Shown here piece after piece: positions 2,360-32,596 of a DNA stretch of 61,925 nt. The notes beneath the pieces were generated by a model that was not told the origin of the DNA, ran no database searches, and saw only the letters and a list, made by a program, of their open reading frames with translations. How positions within the stretch are numbered: position 1 is the first letter of the stretch; each line of letters opens with the position of its first letter. The translations under genes and the position numbers were made by a program. The stretch spans positions 1-61,925 of the IMG/VR virus record IMGVR_UViG_3300028553_001902, one strand, 5' to 3'. Origin of the DNA: a virus (Duplodnaviria; Caudoviricetes).

Positions 2360-2388
2360 TTGACAGATGCCCTAAATTATGGTATAAT
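2360..2388 (+). promoter_or_regulatory. Sigma-70/A promoter
   Basis: TTGACA-N17-TATAAT with extended TG. Confidence 0.9.
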
Positions 2389-3204: not shown

Positions 3205-3466
3205 AACTTATATTGTCTATAATAAAAATTATAGATTTAAAGAAGATTGGACATTACAAGCCCACTTATTAGGAATTAATAAAGCTCTCGATTGGATTGC
3301 GTTCGTTGATACAGCTTATCCTCAGCAAGTTAAAGTTAATAGAGAAACTTATATATGTGATATTGATAAAGTTTTTCGTGGGCAAGCAGGACTCCGCCTA
3401 GAGTTTTTAAATGAAGAGTCGGCCCAAAACTATTGTAATAAACTGAATGAGGTATACGCAAAATGA
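3176..3466 (+). CDS. Hypothetical protein
   Basis: ORF ending in an ATGA overlap with the next gene. Confidence 0.6.
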   Translation: MFQIEKLKNKTYIVYNKNYRFKEDWTLQAHLLGINKALDWIAFVDTAYPQQVKVNRETYICDIDKVFRGQAGLRLEFLNEESAQNYCNKLNEVYAK

Positions 3467-3894
3467 AAACAATAGTTCTTGTAACAGGTGGTTTTGACCC
3501 TATTCATTCGGGACATATAGCTTATTTCAATGCGGCAAAAGCATTGGGAGACTTTTTAGTAGTTGGAATAAATAGTGATGAATGGCTTACACGAAAAAAG
3601 GGTAAGCCTTTTTTAACTTGGGATGAGCGAGAATCTGTTATTTCTAATTTAAGAATGGTTGATTTGGTTTTACATTTTGACGATACAGATAATTCAGCAA
3701 AAGATGCTATTATAAAGGTAAGAAAACTATTTACAACTAAGCACATTATATTCGCCAATGGTGGCGATCGAACAAAAGATAATATACCAGAAATGTCAAT
3801 AAAAGACGATAATTTAACTTTTAAGTTTGCAGTTGGTGGAGACTACAAGAAGAATAGTTCAAGTTGGATTCTGGAGAAATGGAGTGCTAAATGA
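3463..3894 (+). CDS. Cytidylyltransferase-family nucleotidyltransferase (TagD/RfaE-II like)
   Basis: 'TGGFDPIHSGH' HxGH motif, 'VVGINSD', 'FANGGDR', 'SSS'. Confidence 0.9.
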   Translation: MKTIVLVTGGFDPIHSGHIAYFNAAKALGDFLVVGINSDEWLTRKKGKPFLTWDERESVISNLRMVDLVLHFDDTDNSAKDAIIKVRKLFTTKHIIFANGGDRTKDNIPEMSIKDDNLTFKFAVGGDYKKNSSSWILEKWSAK

Positions 3895-4586
3895 TTAATC
3901 TAGATTGGGTTTATATAATTTGTTCTGAAAAATTTGAAAAAGAACGATACGATAATTGGGCTAATTGGCTATCAACTAATAGTATAAAAGGCAGCATTGA
4001 GTTTTATAAATGGGGCACTGAGCTATCAGAAGATGAAGTAAATCAATACGTAGTAAGAGATGGGACATTAGAATCATTATATCCATGGAGAACTGGCTAC
4101 CCAATTAGAAATTCAGAAGCTTCTATTGCAATAAATTTTTTAAAGGTATTTGAAGATGCATATAATAAGAGCTATGATAAAATTTTAATTTTAGAAAGTG
4201 ATGTAATTCTTCACCCTAATTTTATTTTAATTATGAATGAAATTATGAGGACAGTCCAAGACGTTGACTTTAATTGCATTTCTATTGGTTGTGGTATGGG
4301 GCTTAGATTGCAGTCAGATGGTCAGCAAGTTATATTATCCCCAGTTGATCAATTTAGATGCGCTGATAGTCTAATATTCAATCGAACAGCTATAAAACAT
4401 TTTCATGAGAACTTGAAGCAAATTAAATTACCTATTGATGAAGAATTTACAAATGCAGTAAGAAATAATAAAGTTGCAGTATTTTGGCTTGAGCCCCCAA
4501 TCGCAATTCAAGGCTCGCAAGTTATTGGAAATGAAAGCTCTGTTCAATATGGAAATCCCTATAACTTACAAGTGCCTTGGAGATAA
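3891..4586 (+). CDS. Glycosyltransferase, GT25-like
   Basis: 'ILILESDV' and 'LPIDEEF' motifs of GT25; cluster context. Confidence 0.7.
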   Translation: MINLDWVYIICSEKFEKERYDNWANWLSTNSIKGSIEFYKWGTELSEDEVNQYVVRDGTLESLYPWRTGYPIRNSEASIAINFLKVFEDAYNKSYDKILILESDVILHPNFILIMNEIMRTVQDVDFNCISIGCGMGLRLQSDGQQVILSPVDQFRCADSLIFNRTAIKHFHENLKQIKLPIDEEFTNAVRNNKVAVFWLEPPIAIQGSQVIGNESSVQYGNPYNLQVPWR

Positions 4587-4588
4587 AC

Positions 4589-5299
4589 ATGAACATACAA
4601 CCTTTTATATTTAATTGGCGAGGCCAATATGAAAAAACTTGTAAAATTGAATCTGATTTAAAGAATATTTTTGATAAGGTAACTGTCATAAATAGCGATG
4701 ATAATAATAAAAAAGACGAATGGGTAAATATAGGTGAAGAATCTTACTTTGCTCATCAATTTTTAAAAGCAATTGAATTATTTGATGGAGATATATTTTT
4801 TCATATTCAAGGTGATATTACTTTTGATAAGTGGCAGGATTTAGTAAAAGATGGAATAAAATATTTTGATGAATTTGGATGGGGTATTTATGCGCCCAAC
4901 GTAGACTATACTTGGTACAGCGCAAATAATGCAGATGTAAATACAATACAATTCAAACAATACGAGAATTTAAAAGTTGTATCAAATCCAGACTGTACAG
5001 TATGGATGATACATAAAGATGTATTAAGTATTTTGAAAAATGCTGTGCCACAATTAACTCATTTAAAATATGGTTGGGGCCTCGATCTTTTATTATGTGC
5101 CAATTCTTTTTTACAAAAAAGATTGGTTATAAGAGATTATAATTATACAGTTCAGCACCCCCAAGGCACTGGTTATGCACAAGAAGAAGCATATAAAGAA
5201 ATGCAATATCTTATTGAAAAGTGCGATCAGAACTTACAAACCACTATTCATACTATAAGATTTTATAAAGATGAATTAGTCCATTATTTTGGAGGTTAA
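4589..5299 (+). CDS. Putative GT-A fold glycosyltransferase
   Basis: 'HIQGD', 'GIYAP', 'YGWGLD' motifs; cluster context. Confidence 0.55.
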   Translation: MNIQPFIFNWRGQYEKTCKIESDLKNIFDKVTVINSDDNNKKDEWVNIGEESYFAHQFLKAIELFDGDIFFHIQGDITFDKWQDLVKDGIKYFDEFGWGIYAPNVDYTWYSANNADVNTIQFKQYENLKVVSNPDCTVWMIHKDVLSILKNAVPQLTHLKYGWGLDLLLCANSFLQKRLVIRDYNYTVQHPQGTGYAQEEAYKEMQYLIEKCDQNLQTTIHTIRFYKDELVHYFGG

Positions 5300-5300
5300 A

Positions 5301-6164
5301 ATGAACATCTCTTATATTGATATGTGGCCAGGCTTCGATGTACATTCTAACTGGTTTAATCTAGTTTTTAAAGACTTATTGAATGATAAAGAGATTAACT
5401 TTAATTCCTCTCCAGAAGAAGCAGATTTAATACTTGGTGCTACATTCGGAAAAAGAATTGAATCTGTAAAAAATGACAAGGCAATAAAAATATTTTATAC
5501 AGGTGAAAATAAATCTCCTAATCTAATTAACTATGACTACTCTTTATCTTTTGACTTTGATACACACGATGGAAGAAACTTTAGACTTCCTCATTGGTAT
5601 TTATATATTAATTGGTGGGATGAGCCTAATTTTATTCATGCAGAAATAAAGAAGTCTGACCTATTGTATCAATGGGATGTGGATGAGGTTTGGAATAGAC
5701 CATACTTTTGTAGCATTGTTATTGGTAATCCTGTTCCCAATAGATTAGAAGTTGCAAATAAATTGAATCAGTATAAACCTGTATATGGATTTGGCTCTGT
5801 ATTTAACAATCCATTTGCGGGTTCCAAAATTGAATTGTTGAAAAATTTTAGATTCAATATTTGCTTTGAAAATGCACTTTCAAATGGCTATATAACAGAA
5901 AAGGTTCTTGAGGCTAAAGTTGCTGGTACAGTTCCACTATATTTTGGACACGATTCTGTGAGAAAAGATTTCAATAGTTTGAGCTTTATAAATTATAAAA
6001 ATTTTTTAGATTTAGAAAATTTTTATAAATATATAGACTATCTTGAAAAAAATAAAGATTCATTCGCAAGAATTGTTCGTGAATTTGTATTTGACGATAT
6101 GCCAACACTAGGCCCTCTATATGACTTTTTAAGGAAAATTTTAATCTCAAGAGGTATTATATGA
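5301..6164 (+). CDS. GT10 alpha-1,3/4-fucosyltransferase-like protein
   Basis: 'FYTGEN' and the GT10 signature 'FRFNICFENALSNGYITEK...GTVPLYFG'. Confidence 0.9.
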   Translation: MNISYIDMWPGFDVHSNWFNLVFKDLLNDKEINFNSSPEEADLILGATFGKRIESVKNDKAIKIFYTGENKSPNLINYDYSLSFDFDTHDGRNFRLPHWYLYINWWDEPNFIHAEIKKSDLLYQWDVDEVWNRPYFCSIVIGNPVPNRLEVANKLNQYKPVYGFGSVFNNPFAGSKIELLKNFRFNICFENALSNGYITEKVLEAKVAGTVPLYFGHDSVRKDFNSLSFINYKNFLDLENFYKYIDYLEKNKDSFARIVREFVFDDMPTLGPLYDFLRKILISRGII

Positions 6165-7075
6165 GCAATAATTTTTTTGAAATAAACACACTTATTTCAA
6201 ATTGGATAAAAGAAAATAAATCTTTTTCTATAGTAAGAATTGATAATACGGTAGGCCATGTTTTATCCTTTCAAGATATGGGGGCTAGACCCTTTGAATC
6301 TATTTGGAATACTAGTGTTCTTGTTGAGGCTGGAATATATCCTCCAACAATGGAATATGCTTATCAAAAAGTATTGCCAAAAGTTTTAGATGCTGCATTA
6401 AAATCTGATATTCTAGGTTTTGTTGATGTGGGCGAAGAATTAAGGCACAATCATAGATTCTTAGAAAAATTTAAAGATAAGCCAGTTTTTTTTACTGGCG
6501 ATAGTTATCATGTGTTAGACCCAGGGTGTCTTCTTCTTGGGGCAAAATTTGGCAAACCAGAAGAACCTTGGACAAAAAATTTGAAGGACAAAAAGGTACT
6601 GGTCATAAGTCCACACTACGAAAGCATACTTAGACAATGGGAAAAGATTGATTTAGTATGGGGTGAGAATAAAAATAACATAGTTCCTTTTGAATTGGTG
6701 GATTGTATTAGAGCGCCACTTCATCCCTTATTAGATGATAGACAATATCCTAATTGTAACTCATGGGAAGATACTGTTGAATATATAAAAGCCAAAATTC
6801 AAACGTATGACTACGATATTCTTCTTTCAGCAGTATCTCAACAATCTGCATTATATGCTAATTTTGCAAAAGAAAATGGTAAGGTTGGGATTCAAACAGG
6901 TGGTATATTGCAATTATTTTTTGGTATAAAAGGTAATAGATGGATGAATCATGAAATTTATTTTGGTTGGCACGAAATGATGAACGAACATTGGATATAT
7001 CCTTTGCAAATAGATGAGCCACAAAGAAAAAATCAATATAGTTCTCTGGAGACAAATTATGCATATTGGAGATAG
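6161..7075 (+). CDS. Putative GT-D fold-like glycosyltransferase
   Basis: 'FSIVRID', 'LKDKKVLVISP', 'GIQTGGILQLFFGIKGNRW' pattern seen in glycan-cluster proteins. Confidence 0.55.
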   Translation: MSNNFFEINTLISNWIKENKSFSIVRIDNTVGHVLSFQDMGARPFESIWNTSVLVEAGIYPPTMEYAYQKVLPKVLDAALKSDILGFVDVGEELRHNHRFLEKFKDKPVFFTGDSYHVLDPGCLLLGAKFGKPEEPWTKNLKDKKVLVISPHYESILRQWEKIDLVWGENKNNIVPFELVDCIRAPLHPLLDDRQYPNCNSWEDTVEYIKAKIQTYDYDILLSAVSQQSALYANFAKENGKVGIQTGGILQLFFGIKGNRWMNHEIYFGWHEMMNEHWIYPLQIDEPQRKNQYSSLETNYAYWR

Positions 7076-8384
7076 TAAATTAAATAATATTTTAAATTTA
7101 ATACAAGAGTATATAGAAGAAAAACAAGCTACAAAAACTTGGACTGCTGGAAAAGATTATGTTAACTATGCAGGTTCGTACTTTGACCACTCTGAATATG
7201 TGGCCGCAGTCCAAAGTTTATTAAATGGTTGGCTGGTGATGGGTTCAGATTCTCTAAAATTTGAAAGTAAGTTTCCTAGATTTTTTGATAAGAGCTATGG
7301 AATACTGACAAATAGTGGATCGAGTGCCAATCTACTCATGATGACAAGTCTTACAAGTAAAAATGGACATAATTTTCCCAAAGGAACAAAAGTTCTTGTG
7401 CCTGTTGCTGGATTTCCCACAACATTGAATCCTATTCTACAAGTTGGATTTGAACCTATATTTGTAGATATAGAACTAGAAACTTTAAATATAGATTTAG
7501 ATCAAGCTGAAAAAGCTCTACAAGAAAATGATATTAAAGTAATTACATTTGCTCATGTTTTAGGTAATCCGCCGAATATGAATCGCGTCATGGATCTGGT
7601 AAAAAAATACAACTTAATTTTATTAGAAGATTGCTGTGATGCACTTGGCTCAACATTTCAAGGTAAGCCATTGGGAAGCTTTGGAGAGATGGCCTCCTGT
7701 AGTTTCTATCCCGCACATCATATTACAATGGGCGAAGGTGGCTTTGTTTCGTGTAATACAAAAGAGCAAGAAACCATTCTAAGAAGTTTTAGAGAATGGG
7801 GTCGTGGTTGTTATTGCGTAGGACCAAAAGCAAATACTTTAAAATGTGGAACATGTAATAAGAGATTTAGCAACTGGCTACCATCAATGCCCAATGAAAT
7901 ATTTGACCATAAATATGTATATGAAGAAATTGGATACAATCTAAAGCCAATCGAACTTCAGGCCTCTATGGGATTACAGCAGTTGGAAAAATTAGAAACA
8001 ATAACAAATTTAAGAATTAGAAATTACAACTTACTTTTTGCTATATATGAAAAATATGAGGATTTTTTCTTTCTACCAAAAGCTACAAATGGCAGTGTTC
8101 CCAGCTGGTTTGCTTTTCCACTTACTATAAAAGATGTAGCACCTTTTTCTAGGGCAAAGTATATTGACTTCTTAGAAGATAAAAAAATTCAAACTAGACC
8201 ATATTTTGCAGGTAACATTATGTTGCAACCAGCGTATGCTGATATAGCAAAGGATTTGCACAAGTACCCAAATGCAACAAAAGTTACACTTGATACATTT
8301 TTTCATGGAACTAGTCCCGTTATAACACCTGAACAAATTGATTATATTGGACAATGTGTTGATGAATTTTTTAGGAGTATATAA
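7059..8384 (+). CDS. rfbH: RfbH/DdhC-like NDP-4-keto-6-deoxyhexose 3-dehydrase (DegT/DnrJ family)
   Basis: 'NSGSSANL', 'EDCCDALG', 'SFYPAHHITMGEGG' (His in place of the PLP Lys), 'WGRGCYC', 'DHKYVY..IGYNLK'; start uncertain (7014 or 7059). Confidence 0.88.
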   Translation: MHIGDSKLNNILNLIQEYIEEKQATKTWTAGKDYVNYAGSYFDHSEYVAAVQSLLNGWLVMGSDSLKFESKFPRFFDKSYGILTNSGSSANLLMMTSLTSKNGHNFPKGTKVLVPVAGFPTTLNPILQVGFEPIFVDIELETLNIDLDQAEKALQENDIKVITFAHVLGNPPNMNRVMDLVKKYNLILLEDCCDALGSTFQGKPLGSFGEMASCSFYPAHHITMGEGGFVSCNTKEQETILRSFREWGRGCYCVGPKANTLKCGTCNKRFSNWLPSMPNEIFDHKYVYEEIGYNLKPIELQASMGLQQLEKLETITNLRIRNYNLLFAIYEKYEDFFFLPKATNGSVPSWFAFPLTIKDVAPFSRAKYIDFLEDKKIQTRPYFAGNIMLQPAYADIAKDLHKYPNATKVTLDTFFHGTSPVITPEQIDYIGQCVDEFFRSI

Positions 8385-8385
8385 A

Positions 8386-9006
8386 ATGGATAAAGAAAAT
8401 TTGATACAGTTTGAAAGTTTAGTTGCTGAAAAATTTAATAATGCGGAAATTAAAGCACCCATACATTTATACTATAATAACGAGCAACAAATTCAAAAAG
8501 TCTTTGAAAGAGTAGATGTAAAAAATGATTGGGTTTGTTGCACTTGGAGAAATCATTATCAATGCCTGTTAAAGGGCGTACCCCCAGACGAATTATTATC
8601 AAAAATAGTTGAGGGAAAGAGTATGGTAATGAATTTAAACGAGTACAAAATTGTCTGCTCTTCTATTGTTGGAGGAATTCCATCTATTGCTGTTGGAATA
8701 GCTGAATCTATAAAAAGAAAAGAAGAAGATTCAAAGGTATGGTGTTGGCTGGGTGATATGAGCGCTGAAACAGGTGCCTTCCATGAAGCATATAAATACT
8801 CAGTTAATCATAACCTGCCCATAACATTTGTCGTAGAAGATAACGGCCTATCAGTTACTACTCCAACAGATTTAATTTGGGGCAGAGATAAGCCATGGTA
8901 TATATCGAATGTAGCAAATTGGGTCGAACAGCCTAATTTAATATATTATAAATATACCAATACAAAATATCCTCATGCGGGCGCTGGAAGGAGGATACAG
9001 TTTTGA
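8386..9006 (+). CDS. TPP-dependent enzyme, E1-alpha-like subunit (short)
   Basis: 'WRNHY', 'SSIVGG', TPP motif 'LGDMSAETG...VVEDN'; AGGAG SD. Confidence 0.85.
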   Translation: MDKENLIQFESLVAEKFNNAEIKAPIHLYYNNEQQIQKVFERVDVKNDWVCCTWRNHYQCLLKGVPPDELLSKIVEGKSMVMNLNEYKIVCSSIVGGIPSIAVGIAESIKRKEEDSKVWCWLGDMSAETGAFHEAYKYSVNHNLPITFVVEDNGLSVTTPTDLIWGRDKPWYISNVANWVEQPNLIYYKYTNTKYPHAGAGRRIQF

Positions 9007-9536
9007 CACAACAATATTATAAAGAAAAATTAGAAGAGGCCATGATATGGCTCTCCGAGCAAAGCGATACTTTATTTATTGGTCAATCTGTTTCATGGGG
9101 AGGTACTGGAATGTTTGATACATTGCAAAAAATATCAGATGATAAAAGACTAGAATTTCCTGTGGCTGAGAATTTTCAACTAGGCTTTAGTGTAGGAATG
9201 GCGCTAAATGGATTTGTCCCAATCTCTGTATTTCCAAGATGGAACTTCCTTATCTGTGCAACAGATCAACTTGTAAATCATTTAGATAAACTATATTTCA
9301 TGAGCGACGGAGAATATAATCCAAAGGTTATAGTGCGTGTTGCGGTAGGGTCAGAAATTCCAGTTGACCCACAAGATCAACATAAAGGAAATTTCTCTGA
9401 TGCATTTAGATTGATGTGTAAGAATATAGATATAGTTGAATTGAAAAATCCAGAAAAAATACTAGATGAATATAAAGATGCATACTATAAAAATAAAAGT
9501 ACTATCTTAGTGGAATTTCCAGATTATGGAAAATAA
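9003..9536 (+). CDS. TPP-dependent enzyme, E1-beta/transketolase pyrimidine-binding subunit (short)
   Basis: 'EFPVAEN..LG...GMAL.G', 'DQLVNH', 'QH'. Confidence 0.85.
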   Translation: MTQQYYKEKLEEAMIWLSEQSDTLFIGQSVSWGGTGMFDTLQKISDDKRLEFPVAENFQLGFSVGMALNGFVPISVFPRWNFLICATDQLVNHLDKLYFMSDGEYNPKVIVRVAVGSEIPVDPQDQHKGNFSDAFRLMCKNIDIVELKNPEKILDEYKDAYYKNKSTILVEFPDYGK

Positions 9537-10314
9537 AATTCTACTGCTTGGCTCAAAAGGATTTTTGGGAAGTTTTTTATTAAATAATTTACCATATAAT
9601 ATAGTTCCAATTTCAAGAACAGAGTGTGATTTAACTAATTTTAACTCAGTAACAAATTTATTAAAGACGCATAGCCCAGAAATTATTATAAATTGCGCTG
9701 GAAGTCTTGAAAGAGATTTAAAGGTTTTTAATGTTGAATCTTTTAATCAAAATTTAAATATTTTCTTTAATTTATATTATCAAAGAGATTTATTTGGCAA
9801 ACTTATAAATTTAGGTTCTGGTGCAGAATATGATAGAAGATATTCAATTAATTTAAAAAAAGAAATAGAAATAAAATATATTAGACCAGTAGATCATTAT
9901 GGTCTAAGTAAAAATATTATATCTAATATATCTTTATCAGCTAATAACTTCTATACATTGCGATTATTTGGTTGCTTTTCAAATTCAAAAAATATATTAT
10001 TTGATAAAATTATAAATGATAATCAGATTATAATTAAAAATAGACATTTTGATTTTTTTTATGCCCGCGATTTAATTCCAATCTTTGAATATTTTATCGA
10101 AAACTCCCCTGAAATAAAAGATGTTAATATAGTTTATAAAGAAAAGAAAACCCTCAAAGAAATCGTAACTTTTTTTAAAAATTTCCACAATTTAAAATGT
10201 AAAATTTCATTTGAAGAAGATTATAAAAACTACACAGGTTGCTCTGAAACTCTTAATAATTTTAATTTTAAGTTTCAAGGCTTAGAGGAAGGAATGAAAC
10301 AGTATATAATATGA
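9526..10314 (+). CDS. NAD-dependent sugar epimerase/reductase (extended SDR)
   Basis: 'LGSKGFLG', 'GSGAEY', YxxxK 'YGLSK', 'LRLFG'. Confidence 0.85.
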   Translation: MENKILLLGSKGFLGSFLLNNLPYNIVPISRTECDLTNFNSVTNLLKTHSPEIIINCAGSLERDLKVFNVESFNQNLNIFFNLYYQRDLFGKLINLGSGAEYDRRYSINLKKEIEIKYIRPVDHYGLSKNIISNISLSANNFYTLRLFGCFSNSKNILFDKIINDNQIIIKNRHFDFFYARDLIPIFEYFIENSPEIKDVNIVYKEKKTLKEIVTFFKNFHNLKCKISFEEDYKNYTGCSETLNNFNFKFQGLEEGMKQYII

Positions 10315-11252
10315 AAGTAGTTTATATTACTGGCTGCCTCGGCTTCATTGGCTCTCATATAACAGAAATGTGCTTAGAAAAAGGATGGAAAGTTATAGGT
10401 GTTGATAAAGTAACGTATGCGGCCCATGAAGATTTAATAGAAAAATTTTCACAAAATGATTCATTTAAATTTATAAAATCAGATATAAATGACCTTCAAT
10501 TTTTATATGACTGTGATTATATAATAAATACAGCTGCAGAAACCCATGTTGATAATTCGATCGAAGACTCAGTTGAATTCATAAAAACAAATGTCAATGG
10601 AGTTCATAATTTATTGCAACTTATAAAAAATAAACATAGATATAAGATGCCCACATTGCTACATTTTAGTACAGACGAAGTTTATGGAGACAATATAGGA
10701 AGTGCCCATGTGGAAACTGATTTGTTGAAACCTTCCAACCCATACTCAGCAACAAAGGCATCCGCAGATATGTTAGTACTAGCCTGGGCCAGAACATATA
10801 AAGTTCCTTATGTTATCGTGCGCCCATCAAATAATTATGGCATCCGACAAAATCCAGAGAAATTGATTCCAAAATCTTGCAAATATATTTCATTAGGAAG
10901 AAAAATTCCTGTTCATGAGCAAGGTCAACCAATGCGCACTTGGCTTCATGTTAAAGATACTGCCCAAGCCATTATTCGTATTATTGAATCTGAAGTTGTA
11001 AATGAAATTTTTAATATTGGTGGCAATTATGAAGATAAGAATATAAATGTTTTAGAAAAATTAATATACTTTTATTTAAATGATAATAATTTTGAAAAAT
11101 ATTTAGATTTTAATTATACAAGGCCTGGCCAAGATGTCAGATACTCAATCAATGATGATAAGCTAAGAAATCTGGGGTGGCAGCCCAATGCAAATTTTGA
11201 TGATGAATTAAAAAGAATAGTGGAATTTAATAAAGAAAAATTTATTTGGTAA
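10311..11252 (+). CDS. rmlB: NDP-glucose 4,6-dehydratase (RmlB-like)
   Basis: 'TGCLGFIG', 'AAETHVD', 'STDEVYG', 'PYSATKA', 'NNYG', 'RPGQDVRYS'. Confidence 0.88.
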   Translation: MKVVYITGCLGFIGSHITEMCLEKGWKVIGVDKVTYAAHEDLIEKFSQNDSFKFIKSDINDLQFLYDCDYIINTAAETHVDNSIEDSVEFIKTNVNGVHNLLQLIKNKHRYKMPTLLHFSTDEVYGDNIGSAHVETDLLKPSNPYSATKASADMLVLAWARTYKVPYVIVRPSNNYGIRQNPEKLIPKSCKYISLGRKIPVHEQGQPMRTWLHVKDTAQAIIRIIESEVVNEIFNIGGNYEDKNINVLEKLIYFYLNDNNFEKYLDFNYTRPGQDVRYSINDDKLRNLGWQPNANFDDELKRIVEFNKEKFIW

Positions 11253-11264
11253 AGAAGTGATATT

Positions 11265-11951
11265 ATGAATAAAATTATTTCAATGTCTGCATTTGGAACT
11301 GATATTAAGTATTTTGTAGGGGCACAGAGGCAAGCTGAGTTAGCTCAAAAAAACTATCCAGATTGGCAAATTAGAATTTATACAAATAATTTAAGTTTAT
11401 TAGATAATATAAATGATAATGTAAGAGTAATAGAAGTTAATGAAAGCAGTTGGGGGCCATTTTGGAGGTTTGACCCCCTCTTTGAAGACGATAATAATAT
11501 AACAATAATTAGAGATTCTGATGATAGAATAACTTTAAGAGAGGTAATGGCTGTTGAAGAATGGCTAAATAGTGATGCTCTTTTACACACAATTAAAGAT
11601 CATGAGGCTCATTTTCAATTTCCCATAATGGCTGGACTTTTTGGATTTAAAGGAAGATTGCATGAATCCTTGTATAAAATAATGCAGGACTTTAAATTCA
11701 AACATCAATACTATCTGAGCGATCAAATCTTTCTTAGAGATTATGTATATCCAAGATACAGCTCTAGTTGTTTATCACATACATTTATAAGTGGTTGGTT
11801 CTCACAAAGTAGAAATAATTTAATTAATAAGTATTGTTTCTGTGGAAATGGCTATGATGAAAATGATAATCCAATATACTCAGAATCTTTAAATTCAAAA
11901 ATTGATTATTCTAAAAATATTGTTTTCGATGGGGGTAAGTTGACAGAATGA
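11265..11951 (+). CDS. Putative glycosyltransferase-like protein
   Basis: 'WRF', DxD 'RDSDDR', 'KDHEAH..PIMAGLFG', 'DQIFL' motifs. Confidence 0.55.
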   Translation: MNKIISMSAFGTDIKYFVGAQRQAELAQKNYPDWQIRIYTNNLSLLDNINDNVRVIEVNESSWGPFWRFDPLFEDDNNITIIRDSDDRITLREVMAVEEWLNSDALLHTIKDHEAHFQFPIMAGLFGFKGRLHESLYKIMQDFKFKHQYYLSDQIFLRDYVYPRYSSSCLSHTFISGWFSQSRNNLINKYCFCGNGYDENDNPIYSESLNSKIDYSKNIVFDGGKLTE

Positions 11952-11968
11952 CTTGAATATGATATAAT
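11940..11968 (+). promoter_or_regulatory. Sigma-70/A promoter upstream of gmd-fcl-nrdJ
   Basis: TTGACA-N17-TATAAT with extended TG. Confidence 0.9.
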
Positions 11969-11994
11969 TATATATTATATCTAGGAGGATTTAA

Positions 11995-13008
11995 ATGAAA
12001 AAAGCATTAATAACTGGAATCACAGGGCAGGATGGCTCGTACTTAGCTGAACTATTATTAAGTAAAAACTATGAGGTCCATGGTATCATTAGAAGGTCTT
12101 CTTCTATAAACACAAAAAGAATTGACCATTTATATAATAATCCAAATCTTAAGTTACATTATGGCGACTTAACTGATCAATCAAGTCTTATTAGAGTTAT
12201 ACAGCAAATTCAACCAGATGAGATTTATAATTTGGGCGCCCAAAGCCATGTGAAAGTTTCTTTTGAGATTCCAGAGTATACTGGAGAAGTTGATGCATTG
12301 GGAACCCTAAGAATTTTAGAAGCAGTAAGAATTTTGAATCTTGAAAATAAAACTAAAATATATCAAGCTTCAACATCTGAACTCTTTGGACTTGTGCAAG
12401 AAACACCACAGCGTGAAACTACTCCTTTTTATCCACGCTCTCCCTATGGAGTTGCTAAAATGTATGCATATTGGATAACAAAAAATTATAGAGAGTCATA
12501 TGGTCTATATGCTTGCACAGGAATTCTTTTTAATCATGAATCTCCACGTAGAGGGGAAACATTTGTTACTCGTAAAATTACTATGGGATTGAAGGCAATT
12601 TCAGAAGGCACTCAAAAAGAATTGCAACTGGGTAATTTAAATGCACTCAGGGATTGGGGGCATGCACAAGATTTTGTAGAAGCGATGTGGCTTATGTTAC
12701 AACAAAAGCACCCTCAAGATTTTGTAATTGCTACAGGAAAACAATATTCAGTTCGTGATTTTGTAGTTGAAGCAGCGCCCTACTTTGGCATAAATATTGA
12801 ATGGCAAGGTCAAGGCTTAGATGAAGTAGGTATTGATACTAATACTGGAAAAACTATTATACGAGTTAATCCAAAATATTTCAGACCAGCTGAAGTTGAG
12901 ACCCTATTAGGCGATTCAGATAAGGCGCGTAGAATTTTAGGATGGTATCCAAAAACTTCATTTAAGAATTTAGTAAAGGATATGTGTGAAAATGAACAGG
13001 GATTCTAG
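11995..13008 (+). CDS. gmd: GDP-mannose 4,6-dehydratase
   Basis: '[14 protein letters not shown]', 'LGAQSHV', 'QASTSELFG', 'PRSPYGVAK', '[16 protein letters not shown]'. Confidence 0.97.
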
Positions 13009-13921
13009 AATTTTTGTAGCTGGTCACAAAGGACTTGTAGGCTCAGCAATTGTTAGAAAGCTAAAAGAAGAAGGTTATAGAAATTTGGTTCTCAGAACTA
13101 GAGATGAATTGGATTTGAGAAATCAAAAAGATGTTAGAGCCTTTTTTAGAGAAGAACAGCCAGAATATGTATTTTTAAGCGCAGCAAAAGTTGGAGGAAT
13201 ATTGGCAAATAAAAACTATAAGGCTGATTTTATTTTAGATAATTTAAATATTCAAAATAATGTTATTCAAACTTCTCATAAAAGTCAAGTTAAAAAATTA
13301 TTATTTTTAGGTTCTTCTTGTATATATCCAAAATTCGCTCGACAACCAATAAAAGAATCTGAGTTATTAACTGGTTCTCTTGAAGAAACAAATGATTCTT
13401 ATGCTATTGCTAAAATAGCAGGTATAGTTGCGTGTCAATCATTAAAACAGCAATATAATTTTAATGCTATATCATTAATGCCCACAAATCTTTATGGATT
13501 TAATGATAATTTTGACCTAAATAGCTCTCATGTTATACCAGCTTTAATTAAAAAGTTTCATGATGCAAAAAAATCTGGAGCCGCCAGCGTTAATCTTTGG
13601 GGAGATGGATCCCCAATAAGAGAGTTTATGTTTGCTGATGATTTGGCAGATGCCGCTATTTTTTGTATGTTAAATTATAATGATTCAGAAATTATAAATG
13701 TTGGAACTGGAATTGGAATAACAATTAAAAATCTAGCAGATATTATTTCTAAAATTGTTGGGTTTAATGGATTCGCAGTTTGGGACTTAAACCAGCCAAA
13801 TGGAACCCCTAAAAAAGTTTTAAATGTAGAAAAATTGGCGTCATTAGGTTGGACTTCTAAAACCAAACTAGAAGAAGGATTAAAAATAACATATGATTGG
13901 TATCTAAAAAATAAAACATAA
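12992..13921 (+). CDS. fcl: GDP-L-fucose synthase
   Basis: '[10 protein letters not shown]', 'AAKVGGI', 'LGSSCIYP', 'YAIAK', 'MPTNLYG', 'SHVIPA'. Confidence 0.95.
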
Positions 13922-26166: not shown

Positions 26167-27588
26167 ATGGTAGAGATTTCAGGACCTGAGCTGGCGATAA
26201 GTTATCCACCACAGAGCGCCTACTTTATTGGCGAAGAAAACGAACGTTCGGATGTTCTTGAACTTTCTCAAGATGCTATTAGAGTTGTTAGTGTTGGTAG
26301 TACAGGAGATAATGGAAGTGTAGATGCATTTGGTAGAGCGAGAGTGAGCGAACCACTTACTCTTGGAGACTATAAGCATTTATATGCAATTGACCCAAAC
26401 TTTTTAGATTCTGTAAGTGCTAGTGGCACAGTCTCTTTTGCCTTAAATCAAGCAGCTGCAACATTGGCAACGGGCACTAGTAGTGGTTCATATGTAATAC
26501 ATCAAACAAAATTATACCATCACTATCAACCTGGCAAGTCACAATTAATTTTAAGTTCATTTAATTTTGGATATGCAGAAGCGAATGTTACAAAAAGAAC
26601 TGGATACTTTGATGATAGAGATGGAATCTATTTTGAACAGGTAGGACTTCCAACATCAAACGGTACAGATGCTGGTACATTAAATTGGGTTATACGATCG
26701 TATGTTACTGGAACAGCATCAGAGGTTGGTACGCGAATACCACAAAGTCAATGGAATATTGATCGTTGCGATGGGACTGGCAAGAGTGAATTTAATCTCA
26801 ATATATCTAAAGCGCAGCTAATATTTATAGATTTTCAATGGCTCGGAGTTGGTAGAGTTAGATGTGGATTCGTGCATAATGGTGAATATATAGTTGCGCA
26901 TGAATACTATCACTCAAACTTCGATAATACTGTGTATATCGCTAATCCAAACCTGCCAGTTCGATGCGAAATTGTAAATACTGCAGCTATATCAGCAAGT
27001 GCAAGCTTCTCTCAAATATGTTCTTCTGTTATGGCAGAAGGTGGATATATACAAAGCGGAATTGATTGGTCTATTGATAGTGGGTCACTAAGACAAACAT
27101 CGACAACTGGTGCCTCTAGATTTCCAGTGCTTGCATTTAGACTAAAAGATACCTATCAAGGCTATCCAAATAGAGCAACTGTAAAATTAAATAATATTAC
27201 TGCACACATACAAGACAATTCAAGTTATGTTGAAATTATAAAAATTCCAGATGCAAGTTATTTAGTCAATGCTGGCGGAACTTCCTCATTAACTTGGGTT
27301 TCAGTAAATACAAATAGTGTTGTTGAATATTCCATTGATGCTGCTGCGTTTACTGGCTCTACTACTGTAATAAATGTATTATCTTCTGTAGTCATTCCAG
27401 CTGGTGGTTCTGCAAATAGTCAAGGAGTTGCTGGAATACCCTCTGCAACTGATTCAAAAAAGAACTTTATTGTTCAAAATTATGACTCTACAAATTCTGA
27501 AGTATATATTATATCTGTAAAAACAACAGAAACAGGAAACGTGCGCGCAAAAGCTGCGGTTACAGCTCAGTGGAGGGAAATATATTAA
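26167..27588 (+). CDS. Beta-rich hypothetical protein, possibly virion-associated
   Basis: 'DAFGRARVSEP', 'YQPGKS', 'DFQWLGVGRVR', 'PNLPVR' motifs seen in phage and large-virus proteins. Confidence 0.55.
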   Translation: MVEISGPELAISYPPQSAYFIGEENERSDVLELSQDAIRVVSVGSTGDNGSVDAFGRARVSEPLTLGDYKHLYAIDPNFLDSVSASGTVSFALNQAAATLATGTSSGSYVIHQTKLYHHYQPGKSQLILSSFNFGYAEANVTKRTGYFDDRDGIYFEQVGLPTSNGTDAGTLNWVIRSYVTGTASEVGTRIPQSQWNIDRCDGTGKSEFNLNISKAQLIFIDFQWLGVGRVRCGFVHNGEYIVAHEYYHSNFDNTVYIANPNLPVRCEIVNTAAISASASFSQICSSVMAEGGYIQSGIDWSIDSGSLRQTSTTGASRFPVLAFRLKDTYQGYPNRATVKLNNITAHIQDNSSYVEIIKIPDASYLVNAGGTSSLTWVSVNTNSVVEYSIDAAAFTGSTTVINVLSSVVIPAGGSANSQGVAGIPSATDSKKNFIVQNYDSTNSEVYIISVKTTETGNVRAKAAVTAQWREIY

Positions 27589-27953
27589 TGCAACAAAATT
27601 CATTTGGCACTTATGGCAAGCATTGCGTAGTTGATTTCTGGGGTTGCGACTCTGATCGCATAGATAATCTACCTTTCATGAAATCACTATGCTTGCTTGC
27701 CGCAAATGCAACTGGGGCCACAGTTGTTGACGTAATACATAAAGATTTTGAGCCTCAGGGGCTAACTGTACTAGTGCTACTTGAAGAATCTCATCTTTCT
27801 ATACACACTTATCCAGAATTTGGGTTTGTTGCATTTGATTGCTATACATGCTCTAATCTATGCTTTCCTGAAGAAGCTGTAGAAATATTCAAAAATATTT
27901 TAAAGCCTACTAAATCAGTAGAGAAGTTTATAGAGCGGGGCCTCTTACAGTAG
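27588..27953 (+). CDS. speD: S-adenosylmethionine decarboxylase proenzyme (pyruvoyl)
   Basis: 'GKH', 'FEPQGLT', autocleavage 'LEE/SHLSIHTYPE', 'DCYTC'. Confidence 0.92.
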   Translation: MQQNSFGTYGKHCVVDFWGCDSDRIDNLPFMKSLCLLAANATGATVVDVIHKDFEPQGLTVLVLLEESHLSIHTYPEFGFVAFDCYTCSNLCFPEEAVEIFKNILKPTKSVEKFIERGLLQ

Positions 27954-28021: not shown

Positions 28022-31000
28022 ATGTCTTACGTCTCTGTGCATAATCATACCCACTTCTCAAATCTTCGCTTACTAGATTGCATCATAAAGCCGAGCGATT
28101 TAATAGATAGAGCACATGAATTGGGACTTTCTGGTCTAGCAATAACAGACCATGAGTCCCTAAGCGCTCATGTAGAAGCTATTCAATACTATAAAAAGAA
28201 ATATAAAGATTCTGAAATGAAACTAATACTTGGAAATGAGATCTATCTTACTGATGATAGAAGTATGGGTGGAAAATATCCTCACTTTCTACTCATGGCT
28301 AAAAATGCTGAGGGCCATCGCGCACTGAGGGAGTTTAGTAGCATAGCTTGGTCTCATTCTTATTATGATAGAGGGCTTGAGCGCGTCCCTGTAACAAAGC
28401 AAGAGTTGTTAGATATAACAAATAAGTACAAAGGAACACTGATTGCCACAACTGCTTGTATTGGTGGCGAACTCTCACAGTATATCTTAAAATTACATGC
28501 AGCAGAAGGAGCGGGAGATGAGCAGCAAACCACTTTCTATAAGCAGCAGATATATTTATTTATTGATTTTTTACAGCAGTGTTTTGGGCAAGACTTATTA
28601 TTAGAAATAGCCCCAAATGATTCGGAAGAACAGAGAATAGTTAATTGTAGAATGAAATCTATTGCCAGTTTTTTCCAAATTCCTCTAATTTTTGCAACGG
28701 ATTCACACTACCTCAATAAAGAAGATAGATACATCCATAAGGCTTTCTTAAATTCGAAGCACGGTGAGCGAGAAGTTGATGACTTTTATTCTACAGCGTA
28801 CATGATGTCAGAAGAAGAAGTGTGGGAATATTTAAAACATGACTTTTCTAAAGAAGAATTTAATGCCATGATTGAAAATTCTAAAACTATATTGCACAAA
28901 GTCGAATTTTACGACTTATTCAATCCTCAAATTATTCCAACGATCAAATTACCACAAATAAACTTAGATATTACATTCCAAAAAGATAAATATATATATC
29001 TAGATAAGATGCTAGATGATGATAATATACAAAATAATGTATGGATTAAAACTTGTTTAAATAAATTAGCAGAAAAACAACTATTTAACGATACTTATTT
29101 AAATAGATTGAATGATGAAGCTAGAGAGTTGTATGAAATATCTGAGAACCTTAGCATCACAATGACTTCATATTACAATACGATGGCCAAAATTATTGAT
29201 ATCGTATGGAACGAAGGCGACAGTCTAGTAGGTGTTGCGCGAGGAAGTGCCACTGGCTTCTTAAGTTGCTATCTGCTAGGCATCACTCAGCTTGATCCTA
29301 TTAAATGGAACTTGCCGCACTGGCGCCATCTCACAAGTACGCGCCCAGAATTCCCAGATATTGACTTTGATACTCAGGCGCTACGTCGAGATAGAATATT
29401 ACAAGCTATCAAGGCTTATTTTGGCGATAAGAACGTGCTAAATATCTGTACATTTGGTACAGAAGGCCCCAAATCAGCCATCCTAACTGCGTGTAGAGGG
29501 CTAGGCATAGACAACGATATTGGTTTATATCTAACAGGCATGATACCTCAAGAGCGTGGCTTTACATGGCCACTGAGCGATTGTTTATATGGTAATGCTG
29601 AAAAGGATAGACGCCCAATAGAACCGCTTAAAATTGAAATTGCGAAGCATGAAGGCCTAGAAGAAATGATATTGAAGATCGAGGGACTTGTGAATAAGCG
29701 TTCTATTCATGCGGCTGGTGTGTATATCTTTAATAATGGTTTTGTAGAGCGTAATGCTCTAATGAAGGCACCCAATGGACAACCTACTACTCAATGGGAT
29801 ATGGATGATAGCGATTACATGGGCTGTTTAAAGTATGATTTGCTTACTATAGAAGCCTTGGATAAACTGAGGGTTGCATTAGACTTGCTAATAGATGACG
29901 GCTTAATCGAGGCTCAGAGCTCTCTAAAAGAGACATACGATAAGTATCTGCACCCAGATGTTTTAGACTATTCGAATCAGATGTGGCAGGCTGCCTCAGA
30001 TGGAGAAGTCATAAGTCTATTTCAGTTTGATACTTTAGTGGGCGGCCAAGCGATCAAAAAAGTTCAGCCACAATCACTTGAGGACGCAGCATCAGCAAAT
30101 AGCTTAATGAGATTGATGCCACTCGAAGATGGCACAGTATTGGTTGATAAATATGTGCAGTTTAAAAATAATATTGAACTTTGGTATCGAGAATTAGATA
30201 GAAATAATATTCGCCCAGACGAAGTTAAACTGCTTGAACCTCACTATCTACCTGTATATGGTGTGCCCAATACTCAAGAAGATATGATGGAATTACTCAT
30301 GAATCCAGAGCTAATTGGATTCTCACTTGAAGAAGCGAACTATGCAAGAAAAATTGTTGGCAAGAAGAAGATGGAAGAAATTCCTAAGTTAAAGAAAATG
30401 ATTTTTGACAAAAGCCCTGTATCACATAGTCTAATAAACTATATTTATATAACTGCAATTCAACCTCAACTTGGGTAGAATGATGCTCAAGTAAAATTTG
30501 TTGAACCTTATCCAAGGGTGTATGAGAAATCATGCTAACGGTGAAACCTAAGTGTGTGAACATATGGCAATACCGTGCCAAGCTCATTTTGAGAAGGTGT
30601 AGAGACTAAACTGGAGAAATCCTAAGAGAAATAGAGATGGATACTATTTCGTAGCGGCAAATATGAATACCTGTGGTCTAAATTTAACCTTTCATATAGT
30701 CCACTTTTTATTAAAAATAAGGAGGAGTTTATATGATTTGGAGAAAATTTAGAAACACAAGATATGAAATTAGTGAGTACGGGGATGTAAAAAATATTCT
30801 TACAGGAAGAATCTTAAAATCTTCTTTTGTACCAAAGGGCTATTTACATATAAGCCTTAGAATTGATTCTAGTAGAAAAACTTTTTTAATACATAGACTT
30901 GTTGCAGAAGTTTTTTTATCAGAATTTTCCGATCAGTATACAGTGGATCATATTGATGAGAATAAAATTAATAATCATTTTTCAAATTTAAGAATGATGA

Positions 31001-32596
31001 AAAATGAAGAAAATATTTCTATTTCTTGGAGAAGTGGTTCTAGGATTGGAACGTGTACAAAAAAAGTTTTAATGATTAATAAAGCCACTGGATTAGTAGA
31101 AAAAGAATTTGATTCTATTTCCGAGGCTAGTAGACAACTTTCTGTAGATAGAAAAGGCTTAATAAAAAAATTAAATAATAAAACATTAAATAGCAAGAAC
31201 CCTGTATACAAATTTTATATTTTCAAACATTCATAAAGATATAGTCCGATCCTTATAGAAATATAAGATAATTGATTCATTCTCAAGAAATCATACCACT
31301 CCATATACAGCTATCGCTCTTCAAGAGCTTAATATATATAATAAATATCCAACATTATATTGGAATACAGCATGTTTGTATGTTGATGCTGGCGCAGGCG
31401 AGGATAAAACAACAGATTATGCTAAAATTGCAACTGCAATAGGTCAGATAAAGTCAAGTGGAATTAATGTGGCTCTACCTGATATCAATCGCTCAAGATT
31501 TAACTTTAGTCCTGATGTTGAAAACGATAGAATATTGTGCGGCCTGAAGGGTTTAGTTAATGTCGGAGATGATATTGTACATGAAATTATTAAGAATAGA
31601 CCCTATACTTCTTTATATGATTTTATGGAGAGAACTTCTGCATCAAAGTCTGTAATGATATCGCTAATAAAATCTGGGGCTTTTGACTTCGTAGAAAAAA
31701 TTCCAAGAGAAAAGATAATGGAAAATTATATATACTCTACTTTACCGCAAAGAAGTCGTATATCTCTGCAAATAATACCTGCAATTATAAATTCAGATAT
31801 TGATAAGACCGAAATAAATGACCTCCTAGCCTTGTTTGAGTTTAATAGATATATGAGAACTCTAAGGAAAAATAATCATTATATACTAGATCAGAGGGCC
31901 TTAGAATACTATTTAGATAGGTTTGATCCTAAATTAATTGAAGATAATGAAGGAATCAAGTGTGCGGTGTGGGATAGAGTGTACGATAAACATATAGAAC
32001 CCCTACGTAAATGGACCTCTGAAAATCAGGAAGAGATTAAAAAAGCTTTGAGTAAAGAAGCATTTGAAGAAGAATGGGCTAAATACGCGTCTGGCACTAT
32101 AGCATCATGGGAAATGGACTCTGTGAGCTTTTACCATTCGTACCATGAGCTTGAAAAAGTTAATACTTCTGAATATGGAATAGTCGATTTTTATAATCTT
32201 CCTGAATATCCAAAAGTAGAAAAGTTTATAGAATTTGGACCTAAGAAAAAAGTCCCCATATTTCAAACTTCAATAATTGCAGGAACTATCTTAGGAAAAG
32301 ATAAGATAAAATCTACAATTTCTATACAAACGATTGATGGGGTTGTGTATGTTAAGTTTAGACCAGAGCAGTTTGCAGAGTATGATAGGCAAATATCCGA
32401 GCGTCAAGAGGATGGAAGCAAGCGAGTTCTCGATCGCTCGTGGTTTAATCGAGGTAAAAAGATATTACTTACTGGATTTCGTCGCGGCTCCGAATTTGTT
32501 CCTAAAAAATACTCGCATACTTCAACTGAGATGTTATATTTAATTGATGAAATTGACACTCAAGGAAACTTAGTTTTAAAGAGGGATAGACTATGA
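28022..32596 (+). CDS. dnaE: DNA polymerase III alpha (DnaE-type), exon 1 28022-30476 and exon 2 31275-32596 (about 1258 aa)
   Basis: PHP 'HNHTHFS' and 'ITDH', 'RGSA', catalytic 'PDIDFD', 'HAAG', 'KYDLL'; the splice restores LG-Y-SFSRNH. Confidence 0.93.
30477..31274 (+). mobile_element. Group I intron (798 nt) carrying a homing endonuclease
   Basis: Exon ends in U paired in P1 (CTTGGGT/GCTCAAG); P3 ATTTGTTG/CGGCAAAT; P7 GAGACTA/ATAGTCC; terminal G31274; the join is in frame. Confidence 0.93.
30733..31236 (+). CDS. Intron-encoded NUMOD4-HNH-NUMOD1 homing endonuclease
   Basis: 'YEISEYGDVKN', 'IHRLVA..F', 'VDHIDENKINNHFSNL', 'FDSISEASR'. Confidence 0.92.
   Translation: MIWRKFRNTRYEISEYGDVKNILTGRILKSSFVPKGYLHISLRIDSSRKTFLIHRLVAEVFLSEFSDQYTVDHIDENKINNHFSNLRMMKNEENISISWRSGSRIGTCTKKVLMINKATGLVEKEFDSISEASRQLSVDRKGLIKKLNNKTLNSKNPVYKFYIFKHS

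Follow-up and report, generated by a model that had tools for sequence, protein, structure and literature searches.

A candidate phage pathway for a carbon-branched 3,6-dideoxyhexose containing a minimal two-subunit thiamine enzyme

The window analyzed here, the whole 61,925-base stretch of virus record IMGVR_UViG_3300028553_001902 (approximately 35% complete by CheckV), carries phage hallmark genes for a holin, an M23 endolysin, a tape measure protein, DNA polymerase, primase/helicase and ribonucleotide reductase, together with a glycan operon of thirteen plus-strand genes at 3463–13921. Neighboring genes of this operon overlap or lie no more than 2 bases apart, save for two pairs separated by 12 and 43 bases. 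Embedded in the operon, at 7059–11252, is a co-directional, overlapping unit that encodes, in order, an RfbH-type 3-dehydrase, short alpha and beta subunits that resemble those of dehydrogenase E1 components, a short-chain dehydrogenase/reductase (SDR) and an RmlB-like 4,6-dehydratase (Table 1). The original prediction described a four-step gene run at this locus; its coordinates, strand and enzyme identities hold, but the number of genes is five. When this region was compared with GenBank phages at the nucleotide level, one short, irrelevant match was the only result.

The first gene of the unit encodes a protein that passes the RfbH equivalog model NF011936 (452.7 bits against a cut-off of 423) and aligns over its full length with the solved E1 dehydrase 3bcx (E = 4.8e-105, residues 25–453). 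Its segment YPAHHITMGEGG is the same as that of wild-type 3bcx, while the deposited structure 3bb8 has K at the first His. At this site a His-His pair replaces the catalytic Schiff-base Lys of the DegT aminotransferases, and the protein also keeps the cysteines of the EDCC and CYC...C motifs, aligned with the Cys of the solved enzyme. H235, H236, C208, C266, C268 and C281 are invariant among 29 phage RfbH homologues, in keeping with the Cys-rich, Lys-to-His RfbH that had been predicted. We take the four cysteines to be the ligands of the [2Fe-2S] cluster, and their conservation fits the retention of that cluster. Because they are invariant, RfbH would still need electrons.

The two genes that follow encode what had been described as truncated E1-alpha- and E1-beta-like subunits without an E2 partner, and profile comparisons agree with that description. 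The alpha open reading frame (ORF) covers 8338–9006, with a likely start at the ATG at 8386 that yields 206 residues. Alpha matches Pfam E1_dh at 1.8e-14, only over profile positions 15–170 of 300, and reaches 71.6 bits against TIGR03182, for which the cut-off is 393.85. Beta matches pyruvate dehydrogenase (PDH) E1-beta 1ik6 at 1.5e-9 and reaches 47.6 bits against NF006667 (cut-off 321) over positions 1–136 of 327, a region that holds the pyrimidine-binding domain only. Alpha lacks approximately 130 residues at its C terminus, and beta lacks its entire C-terminal (E2-binding) domain. No E2 domain (2-oxoacid_dh, PF00198) was found in the whole 61.9-kb record, nor was E2 present among the Pfam results for the recurrent neighbor clusters scanned in related loci (ranks 6–33, 35 and 40–42). 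The pair matches E1_dh and Transket_pyr only and does not have the three-domain TPP_enzyme_N/M/C architecture typical of YerE.

The residues that would bind and activate thiamine diphosphate (ThDP) are nevertheless kept in this truncated pair. The ThDP-Mg motif of alpha, G123-D124...N153, is at least 95% conserved among 84 unique relatives, and E56 of beta (the activating Glu, within PVAEN), together with H93, D95, K96 and H127, is conserved to the same degree among 82 unique relatives; the ThDP-Mg motif and the activating Glu have their counterparts in E1-alpha of branched-chain 2-keto acid dehydrogenase (BCKDH) and in PDH E1-beta when the chains are aligned. In the phage family phrog_34187 (405 positions), the first half corresponds to alpha and the second to beta, and annotated fused forms occur in cyanophages S-SM2 (SSM2_198) and P-TIM68 (gp190). 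Because the fused family covers both, alpha and beta are best regarded as the halves of one small ThDP enzyme. At the level of sequence, the truncations, the lack of E2 and the fused relatives indicate that the pair is not a dehydrogenase complex. Short alpha subunits of this kind form a large group, with 4419 relatives (counted as sequence clusters) at E ≤ 0.001 in the length class of 122–389 residues; the best 120 are 204–225 residues long and are mostly named in their sources as pyruvate or acetoin dehydrogenase E1 alpha.

The SDR and the 4,6-dehydratase of the original prediction are both present as well. The SDR has a Gly-rich motif, S98 and Y125-x3-K129; of these residues, Y125 is the same in all 36 sequences compared, and S98 and K129 in at least 90% of them. 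The last gene of the unit encodes a dehydratase that scores 303.6 bits against the deoxythymidine diphosphate (dTDP)-glucose model TIGR01181 (cut-off 365.1) and 79.6 bits against the cytidine diphosphate (CDP)-type model TIGR02622, and it matches dTDP-glucose 4,6-dehydratases in the PDB with E-values down to 1.2e-63. By its sequence, this enzyme is RmlB-like and appears to be of the dTDP/uridine diphosphate (UDP) type and not of the CDP-glucose type, and hence the product of the unit need not be CDP-yersiniose.

A gene-neighborhood search, which the original prediction had put forward as a check, showed that the unit recurs in other viral loci. Alpha as a seed identified 118 encoding stretches in viral contigs, and we analyzed the best 80, calling RmlB-like proteins at 45% identity or more and E1-type RfbH at 50% or more. 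Alpha was called in 78 of these 80 loci, beta in 77, the RmlB-like dehydratase in 73, the SDR in 69 and E1-type RfbH in 60. The complete five-gene unit, in which E1 alpha/beta homologues lie inside a deoxysugar cluster beside 4-keto-sugar enzymes, is present in the order of the window or a variant of it in 46/80 loci, corresponding to 37 of the 60 clusters formed at 95% alpha identity; although gene order varies across loci, alpha, beta and SDR remain together. Ten of the 80 loci lack E1-type RfbH and encode instead a ColD-like DegT-family protein (30–35% identical) with His at the catalytic position and no cysteine motif. One of them (L074) lies in G009, a 166-kb genome rated 100% complete, which holds alpha/beta, SDR and RmlB and whose sole DegT-family gene is ColD-like. 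Overall, a 3-dehydratase of either kind accompanies alpha/beta in 70/80 viral loci, and of the 81 DegT-family ORFs in the vicinity of alpha/beta, counting viral and cellular loci together, 80 have His at the catalytic Lys position and one has Lys. Two unrelated C3-deoxygenation enzymes thus accompany the pair, which suggests that it acts on a 3-deoxy-4-keto sugar.

The pair also extends beyond viruses. A scan of prokaryotic genomes returned 20 loci at 27–50% identity from candidate-phyla bacteria, DPANN archaea, Verrucomicrobiota and others; 19 hold an alpha/beta pair and none holds E1-type RfbH. As a separate observation, these cellular loci (L001–L020) carry alpha/beta without the viral SDR, and a B12-binding radical SAM protein is encoded nearby in 10/20 and a GHMP kinase in 6/20.

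To view the thiamine enzyme from the side of its neighbor, we used an alignment of phage RfbH homologues as seed and examined the best 80 of at least 591 viral stretches; a single-protein RfbH seed gave 14 loci, and all counts here refer to the alignment seed. The position near RfbH is occupied by three different ThDP architectures. An acetolactate synthase (ALS)/YerE-type enzyme, as a single chain or split, was found in 33/80 loci (22 of the 42 with at least 4 kb on both sides), an E1-like alpha/beta pair in 16/80 (6/42), and a miniature transketolase/DXS-like pair of 202 and 159 residues in 15/80 (8/42), leaving 16/80 loci (6/42) in which no thiamine enzyme was found. The closest relative of the window, L116, illustrates the exchange most directly. 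Its gene order is the same, with identities to the window of 41% for the 4577–5299 protein, 51% for the GT10 enzyme, 51% for the GT-D-like protein, 75% for RfbH, 46% for SDR, 74% for RmlB, 71% for Gmd, 48% for the 11265–11951 protein and 57% for Fcl, and a transketolase-like pair (L116:8340-9424; Pfam Transketolase_N/DXP_synthase_N and Transket_pyr), directly behind RfbH, sits exactly in the alpha/beta slot. This pair matches no PHROG and does not resemble alpha/beta of the window significantly by BLAST, and it is also found in L127, L130, L131, L133, L149, L157, L158, L165, L166, L169, L170, L173, L176 and L185. Some ALS-type enzymes, a number of them split into two genes, follow an HpcH/HpaI aldolase or a class I/II aminotransferase (L108:5892-8840, L114:283-3211, L134, L139, L148, L178 and L186). 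By analogy with erwiniose and caryophyllose, such neighbors suggest longer or functionalized branch donors.

The SDR tracks the thiamine enzyme. An SDR orthologue is encoded in 39 of the 64 RfbH loci with a thiamine enzyme versus 1 of the 16 without (Fisher p = 1.2e-4), as expected if the SDR serves the product of that enzyme, like YerF, and not an ordinary 3,6-dideoxyhexose. It lies directly behind the thiamine gene, with its start no more than 150 bases away, in 14/16 loci of the E1 class, 14/33 of the ALS class and 2/15 of the transketolase class. Five of the six long-flank RfbH loci without a thiamine enzyme were scanned with Pfam; L125, L172 and L183 hold other Epimerase-family SDRs, and no E3 was found in the five. 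Two loci, L108 and L114, had seemed to encode RfbH, SDR and RmlB alone and were considered as cases of an SDR acting as a mere C4 reductase, a candidate we rejected on finding ALS-type enzymes directly upstream of the SDR in both. The alternation of enzymes in one slot and the coupling of the SDR to it support the prediction of a two-subunit thiamine enzyme in place of YerE, on comparative-genomic and not biochemical grounds.

Two further predicted absences, of the RfbH partner reductase (AscD/RfbI) and of an RfbF/RmlA nucleotidyltransferase, also stand. The window contains no NTP_transferase domain (RmlA/RfbF type) and no 2Fe-2S ferredoxin (Fer2) domain; NAD_binding_1 was not searched there. 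Since the window is incomplete, the search was extended to five large related records with the module, of which four have a completeness of at least 91%, and these gave no match to NAD_binding_1, Fer2 or NTP_transferase; all five encode cytidylyltransferase-like genes. The recurrent neighbor clusters scanned with Pfam (the same ranks as above) are glycosyltransferases, methyltransferases, a phosphoribosyltransferase, unrelated phage genes or without match, and include no reductase. With no classical nucleotidyltransferase, the pathway would therefore start from a host nucleoside diphosphate (NDP)-glucose or make some use of the RfaE-II-like gene at 3463–3894, and with no phage reductase, the Fe-S dehydrase would draw its electrons from host carriers. 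SpnQ provides a precedent, as an E1-type dehydrase that works with general ferredoxin or flavodoxin reductases.

Several characterized or proposed systems bear on the function of the unit. According to passages of PMC9306805, yersiniose is made by YerE and YerF from a 3,6-dideoxy-4-keto sugar and pyruvate, and in erwiniose synthesis a YerE-like enzyme (ErwE) receives its keto-acid donor from an aldolase (ErwI) and is followed by a reductase (ErwF). The window resembles the yersiniose A pathway of Yersinia pseudotuberculosis (DdhA-D, YerE and YerF) in function, and its RfbH passes the RfbH equivalog model; it differs in being phage-borne, in lacking a DdhA-type nucleotidyltransferase and a DdhD/E3 reductase, in having a dehydratase that resembles RmlB and not the CDP-glucose type, and in using as its thiamine enzyme an E1-like pair of pyrophosphate-binding (PP) and pyrimidine-binding (Pyr) subunits totaling 383 residues, whereas YerE is an ALS-like flavoprotein of approximately 580 residues. 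The likeness to erwiniose-type clusters concerns the slot and not a protein of the window: sister locus L108 encodes RfbH, an HpcH/HpaI aldolase, an ALS-type enzyme and the SDR orthologue, and L148 and L178 are similar, but the window itself has neither aldolase nor ALS-type enzyme.

A two-subunit E1-like branching enzyme is not unprecedented, because the full-length E1 alpha/beta homologues AviB1/B2, Pau11/12, Plm8/9 and EvdU5/EvdS3 have already been proposed to branch sugars with an acetyl group at C4; passages of PMC4425429, PMC4753412, PMC4802897 and PMC10338323 describe these proposals and the loss of paulomycin production on knock-out of pau11. As two-subunit PDH E1 homologues within deoxysugar clusters, they are the closest functional precedent for the pair in the window. 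Compared by size and description, as given in a passage of PMC4425429, Pau11/Pau12 (= Plm8/Plm9) are full length at 325 and 345 residues, while the phage subunits, at 206 and 177 residues, lack the C-terminal parts. The follow-up reductase there is an aldo-keto reductase, Pau7 (PMC4753412), and not an SDR as in the window, and the Pau pathway is that of an actinomycete antibiotic, for which the passages concerned propose branching after glycosyl transfer. The phage pair belongs to the E1/transketolase superfamily, like E1 of PDH and BCKDH (alpha2beta2), with which it shares its order of domains (PP in alpha, Pyr in beta) along with ThDP-Mg motif, activating Glu and beta His; it lacks their C-terminal parts, their E2/E3 partners and family-level scores. 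The fused proteins of S-SM2 and P-TIM68, annotated as 'transketolase central region-containing protein', are the same mini enzyme in a single chain, with 35–38% identity to alpha.

Taken together, the five genes probably constitute a phage pathway for an NDP-activated 3,6-dideoxyhexose that bears a two-carbon branch at C4, as in yersiniose. Gene identities, motifs, truncations and genomic association are observed directly; every chemical step is inferred, as are nucleotide, donor, stereochemistry and the target of the glycan. In the first step, the RmlB-like enzyme would convert a host NDP-glucose, presumably dTDP- or UDP-glucose, to NDP-4-keto-6-deoxyglucose. The RfbH-type dehydrase, dependent on pyridoxamine 5'-phosphate (PMP) and a [2Fe-2S] cluster, would then remove the C3 hydroxyl, with two electrons that host ferredoxin or flavodoxin systems may supply, as no phage E3 was found. 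The alpha/beta ThDP enzyme would decarboxylate a 2-keto acid, most simply pyruvate, because no aldolase or aminotransferase adjoins the pair, and the resulting acyl anion would join the C4 ketone to give a C4-acetyl tertiary alcohol. Finally, the SDR, as an equivalent of YerF, would reduce the side-chain ketone to a 1-hydroxyethyl group, and the glycosyltransferases of the operon would use the branched sugar alongside guanosine diphosphate (GDP)-fucose.

A number of observations weigh against this yersiniose-type pathway. The RfbH loci that lack a thiamine enzyme include six with at least 4 kb on both sides, and the SDR orthologue is encoded in only 3/15 loci of the transketolase class, most of which use a different SDR. 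In L045 and L046 (approximately 8001–11075), an E1-like and a transketolase-like pair lie in tandem within a run from RmlB to a single SDR; because both pairs precede one SDR, a simple equivalence of the two mini pairs does not account for these loci. The predicted SDR model (predicted local distance difference test 96.5) has as its nearest solved folds MlghC, GDP-fucose synthase and RmlD, all of which are ring C4 ketoreductases of NDP-sugars, and the modeled fold would be compatible with plain C4 reduction. The fused S-SM2 and P-TIM68 relatives sit in heptose-type clusters (phosphoheptose isomerase, heptose kinase/adenylyltransferase and Zn-dependent alcohol dehydrogenase) without RfbH, which means that the acceptor of the family is not always a 3,6-dideoxyhexose. 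The absence of E3/AscD, ferredoxin and a sugar-1-phosphate nucleotidyltransferase leaves the first two steps dependent on an unverified host supply. Lastly, the short E1-like family is not known to include an assayed member, and the full-length actinomycete pairs rest on knock-outs and proposed pathways, no enzyme assay being mentioned in the passages of PMC4425429, PMC4802897 and PMC10338323 concerned.

Some of these points would also suit a pathway of the same logic in which the thiamine step has another chemistry, so that the product is branched but not yersiniose-like. The donor could then be hydroxypyruvate, 2-oxobutyrate or a longer hydroxy-keto acid, and the acceptor a heptose, a 4-keto sugar that keeps its 3-hydroxyl, or a sugar that has been transferred to a glycan beforehand, as proposed for avilamycin and paulomycin. 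The heptose-type surroundings of the fused relatives fit this possibility, as do the aldolases and aminotransferases often beside the ALS-type counterparts, which would make longer donors, and the two different mini pairs in L045 and L046 hint at different specificities. Passages of the literature also lend it some weight: ErwE refuses pyruvate (PMC9306805), and the authors of the paulomycin study propose branching after glycosyl transfer (PMC4425429). We nonetheless consider it unlikely for the window, where no aldolase, aminotransferase or heptose gene stands beside the pair and the pair is translationally coupled to RfbH and SDR, and where the association of alpha/beta with a 3-dehydratase across the viral loci favors a 3-deoxy acceptor.

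A different role for the pair would be to feed RfbH: alpha/beta would oxidatively decarboxylate pyruvate and pass the electrons to the RfbH cluster, and the SDR would reduce C4 to give an unbranched 3,6-dideoxyhexose. Such a role would account for the lack of NAD_binding_1 and Fer2 in the five related records, for the thiamine enzyme beside RfbH in most phage RfbH loci and for the electrons that the invariant cluster cysteines call for, and the C4-reductase folds nearest to the modeled SDR would suit it. The ColD-like loci argue against the pair existing to feed electrons to an Fe-S enzyme: in the complete genome G009, alpha/beta is paired with a Cys-less dehydratase that needs no electrons, with no Fe-S RfbH, the same kind of arrangement is seen in 10/80 alpha-seeded loci, and the 20 cellular loci, 19 with alpha/beta, have no E1-type RfbH at all. 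Moreover, the aldolases and aminotransferases near ALS-type counterparts point to carbon donors and not to reductant, and a C4 reductase would also be required in the RfbH loci that lack a thiamine enzyme, yet only one of these 16 has the SDR. We know of no precedent for a thiamine enzyme that replaces the E3 reductase of RfbH, and regard this role as improbable. Least credible by far is an auxiliary metabolic function, with the pair as a small pyruvate/acetoin dehydrogenase E1 that raises host acetyl-CoA or acetoin turnover: source names such as 'pyruvate dehydrogenase E1 component alpha subunit' and 'TPP-dependent pyruvate/acetoin dehydrogenase alpha subunit' and the PDH E1 models that are the best family matches speak for it, but those matches fall far under the equivalog cut-offs, alpha has no C-terminal half and beta no E2-binding domain, E2 is absent from the record, and both genes form part of a sugar operon and vary together with sugar-enzyme genes across 80 viral loci.

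Among the remaining genes of the operon, the small nucleotidyltransferase that opens it is nearest to RfaE domain II (heptose-1-phosphate adenylyltransferase), although it scores 78.7 bits against TIGR02199, below the cut-off of 181.5; it matches phrog_7878 at 2.1e-32, and its homologue cluster is present in 11/80 alpha-seeded viral loci. Homologues of the 4577–5299 protein (41–47% identity) occupy the same position in L021-L027 and L116, the 6161–7075 gene is kept in L022-L027 and L116, and homologues of the 11265–11951 protein (47–52% identity) occur in L022, L024 and L116. Gmd and the Fcl-like protein would form a separate GDP-L-fucose branch within the same operon, as judged from their family matches. 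In L114, a 664-residue Fcl-like epimerase/reductase ORF at 8796–10790 with Hint and intein-splicing matches reveals an intein in a phage GDP-fucose synthase gene. Upstream of the operon, the hairpin and promoter at 2326–2388 are likely the start of a transcription unit that enters it, which we offer as a lead only; a second 12/12 consensus promoter lies at 11940–11968, just upstream of gmd, and promoter-site counts around the operon are no higher than in shuffled controls.

Table 1. Positions and assignments of the genes and signals in and around the glycan operon.
Feature	Coordinates	Strand	Evidence or remark
Terminator-like hairpin, then sigma-70 promoter with extended TG	2326–2353, then 2360–2388	+	12/12 match to promoter consensus
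Small cytidylyltransferase-like nucleotidyltransferase, 143 aa	3463–3894	+	GGFDPIHSGH motif; Pfam CTP_transf_like 1.5e-12
Putative glycosyltransferase (GT), weakly GT25-like	3891–4586	+	Pfam PF01755 9.8e-5, 22.7 bits versus cut-off 24
Conserved cluster protein, 240 aa	4577–5299	+	No Pfam/NCBIfam match
GT10 alpha-1,3-fucosyltransferase-like glycosyltransferase	5289–6164	+	Pfam Glyco_transf_10 2.8e-16, FucT_N 2.6e-14
Putative glycosyltransferase, weak GT-D fold	6161–7075	+	Pfam PF22882 6.6e-4, under cut-off
RfbH/E1-type PMP- and [2Fe-2S]-dependent NDP-4-keto-6-deoxyhexose 3-dehydrase	7059–8384	+	ORF opens at 7014; NF011936
Minimal E1-alpha-like subunit, 206 aa, PP domain	8386–9006	+	Partial E1_dh match
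Minimal E1-beta-like subunit, 177 aa, pyrimidine-binding domain	9003–9536	+	Partial E1-beta match
Short extended SDR, 262 aa	9526–10314	+	Pfam Epimerase 2.1e-11
RmlB-like NDP-glucose 4,6-dehydratase	10311–11252	+	TIGR01181
Conserved cluster protein, 228 aa	11265–11951	+	No family match
GDP-mannose 4,6-dehydratase (Gmd)	11995–13008	+	TIGR01472 557.2 bits versus cut-off 415
GDP-L-fucose synthase-like protein (Fcl)	12986–13921	+	NF047922 462.4 bits, slightly below cut-off 500

Elsewhere in the window, the DNA polymerase appears to be split, with the ORF at 28022–30478 corresponding to positions 42–763 of phrog_405 and that at 31376–32596 to positions 827–1089; an HNH/NUMOD4 homing-endonuclease gene (30733–31236) lies between the two. 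The endolysin combines an NAGPA phosphodiester-glycosidase domain with the M23 peptidase, and the phage also has S-adenosylmethionine decarboxylase (986–2131 and 27570–27953).

Beyond the single locus, our data raise the broader proposal that the short pair represents a large family of minimal ThDP carboligases that branch 3-deoxy-4-keto sugar nucleotides, that phages swap the branching cassette, and that the Fe-S 3-dehydrase has lost its own reductase; we are evenly divided on whether this proposal will hold. In our full-text literature search (supplements aside), neither branched-sugar pathways of phages nor the short alpha/beta family turned up as the subject of a paper. As the kind of pathway is already known, what appears to be new here is a minimal split E1-like carboligase in a phage pathway, seemingly interchangeable with two other ThDP architectures.

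Carbon-branched deoxysugars, of which yersiniose, erwiniose and caryophyllose are examples, are considered rare and confined to the decoration of a few antibiotics and bacterial surfaces. A thiamine enzyme adjoins RfbH in 64/80 of the RfbH-seeded loci, the best 80 of at least 591 RfbH-like viral stretches. If our reading is correct, phages would be a large and unrecognized source of branched-sugar chemistry; under the broader proposal above, carbon-branched deoxysugars would be a common product of aquatic phages, displayed on the virion or on the cell during infection. Our reading would also mean that the name 'pyruvate dehydrogenase E1 alpha/beta' is wrong for thousands of genes in viral and candidate-phyla genomes, and that no ThDP carboligase known to act on sugar nucleotides is smaller than the E1-like pair with its 383 residues, which would make the pair of interest for biocatalysis.

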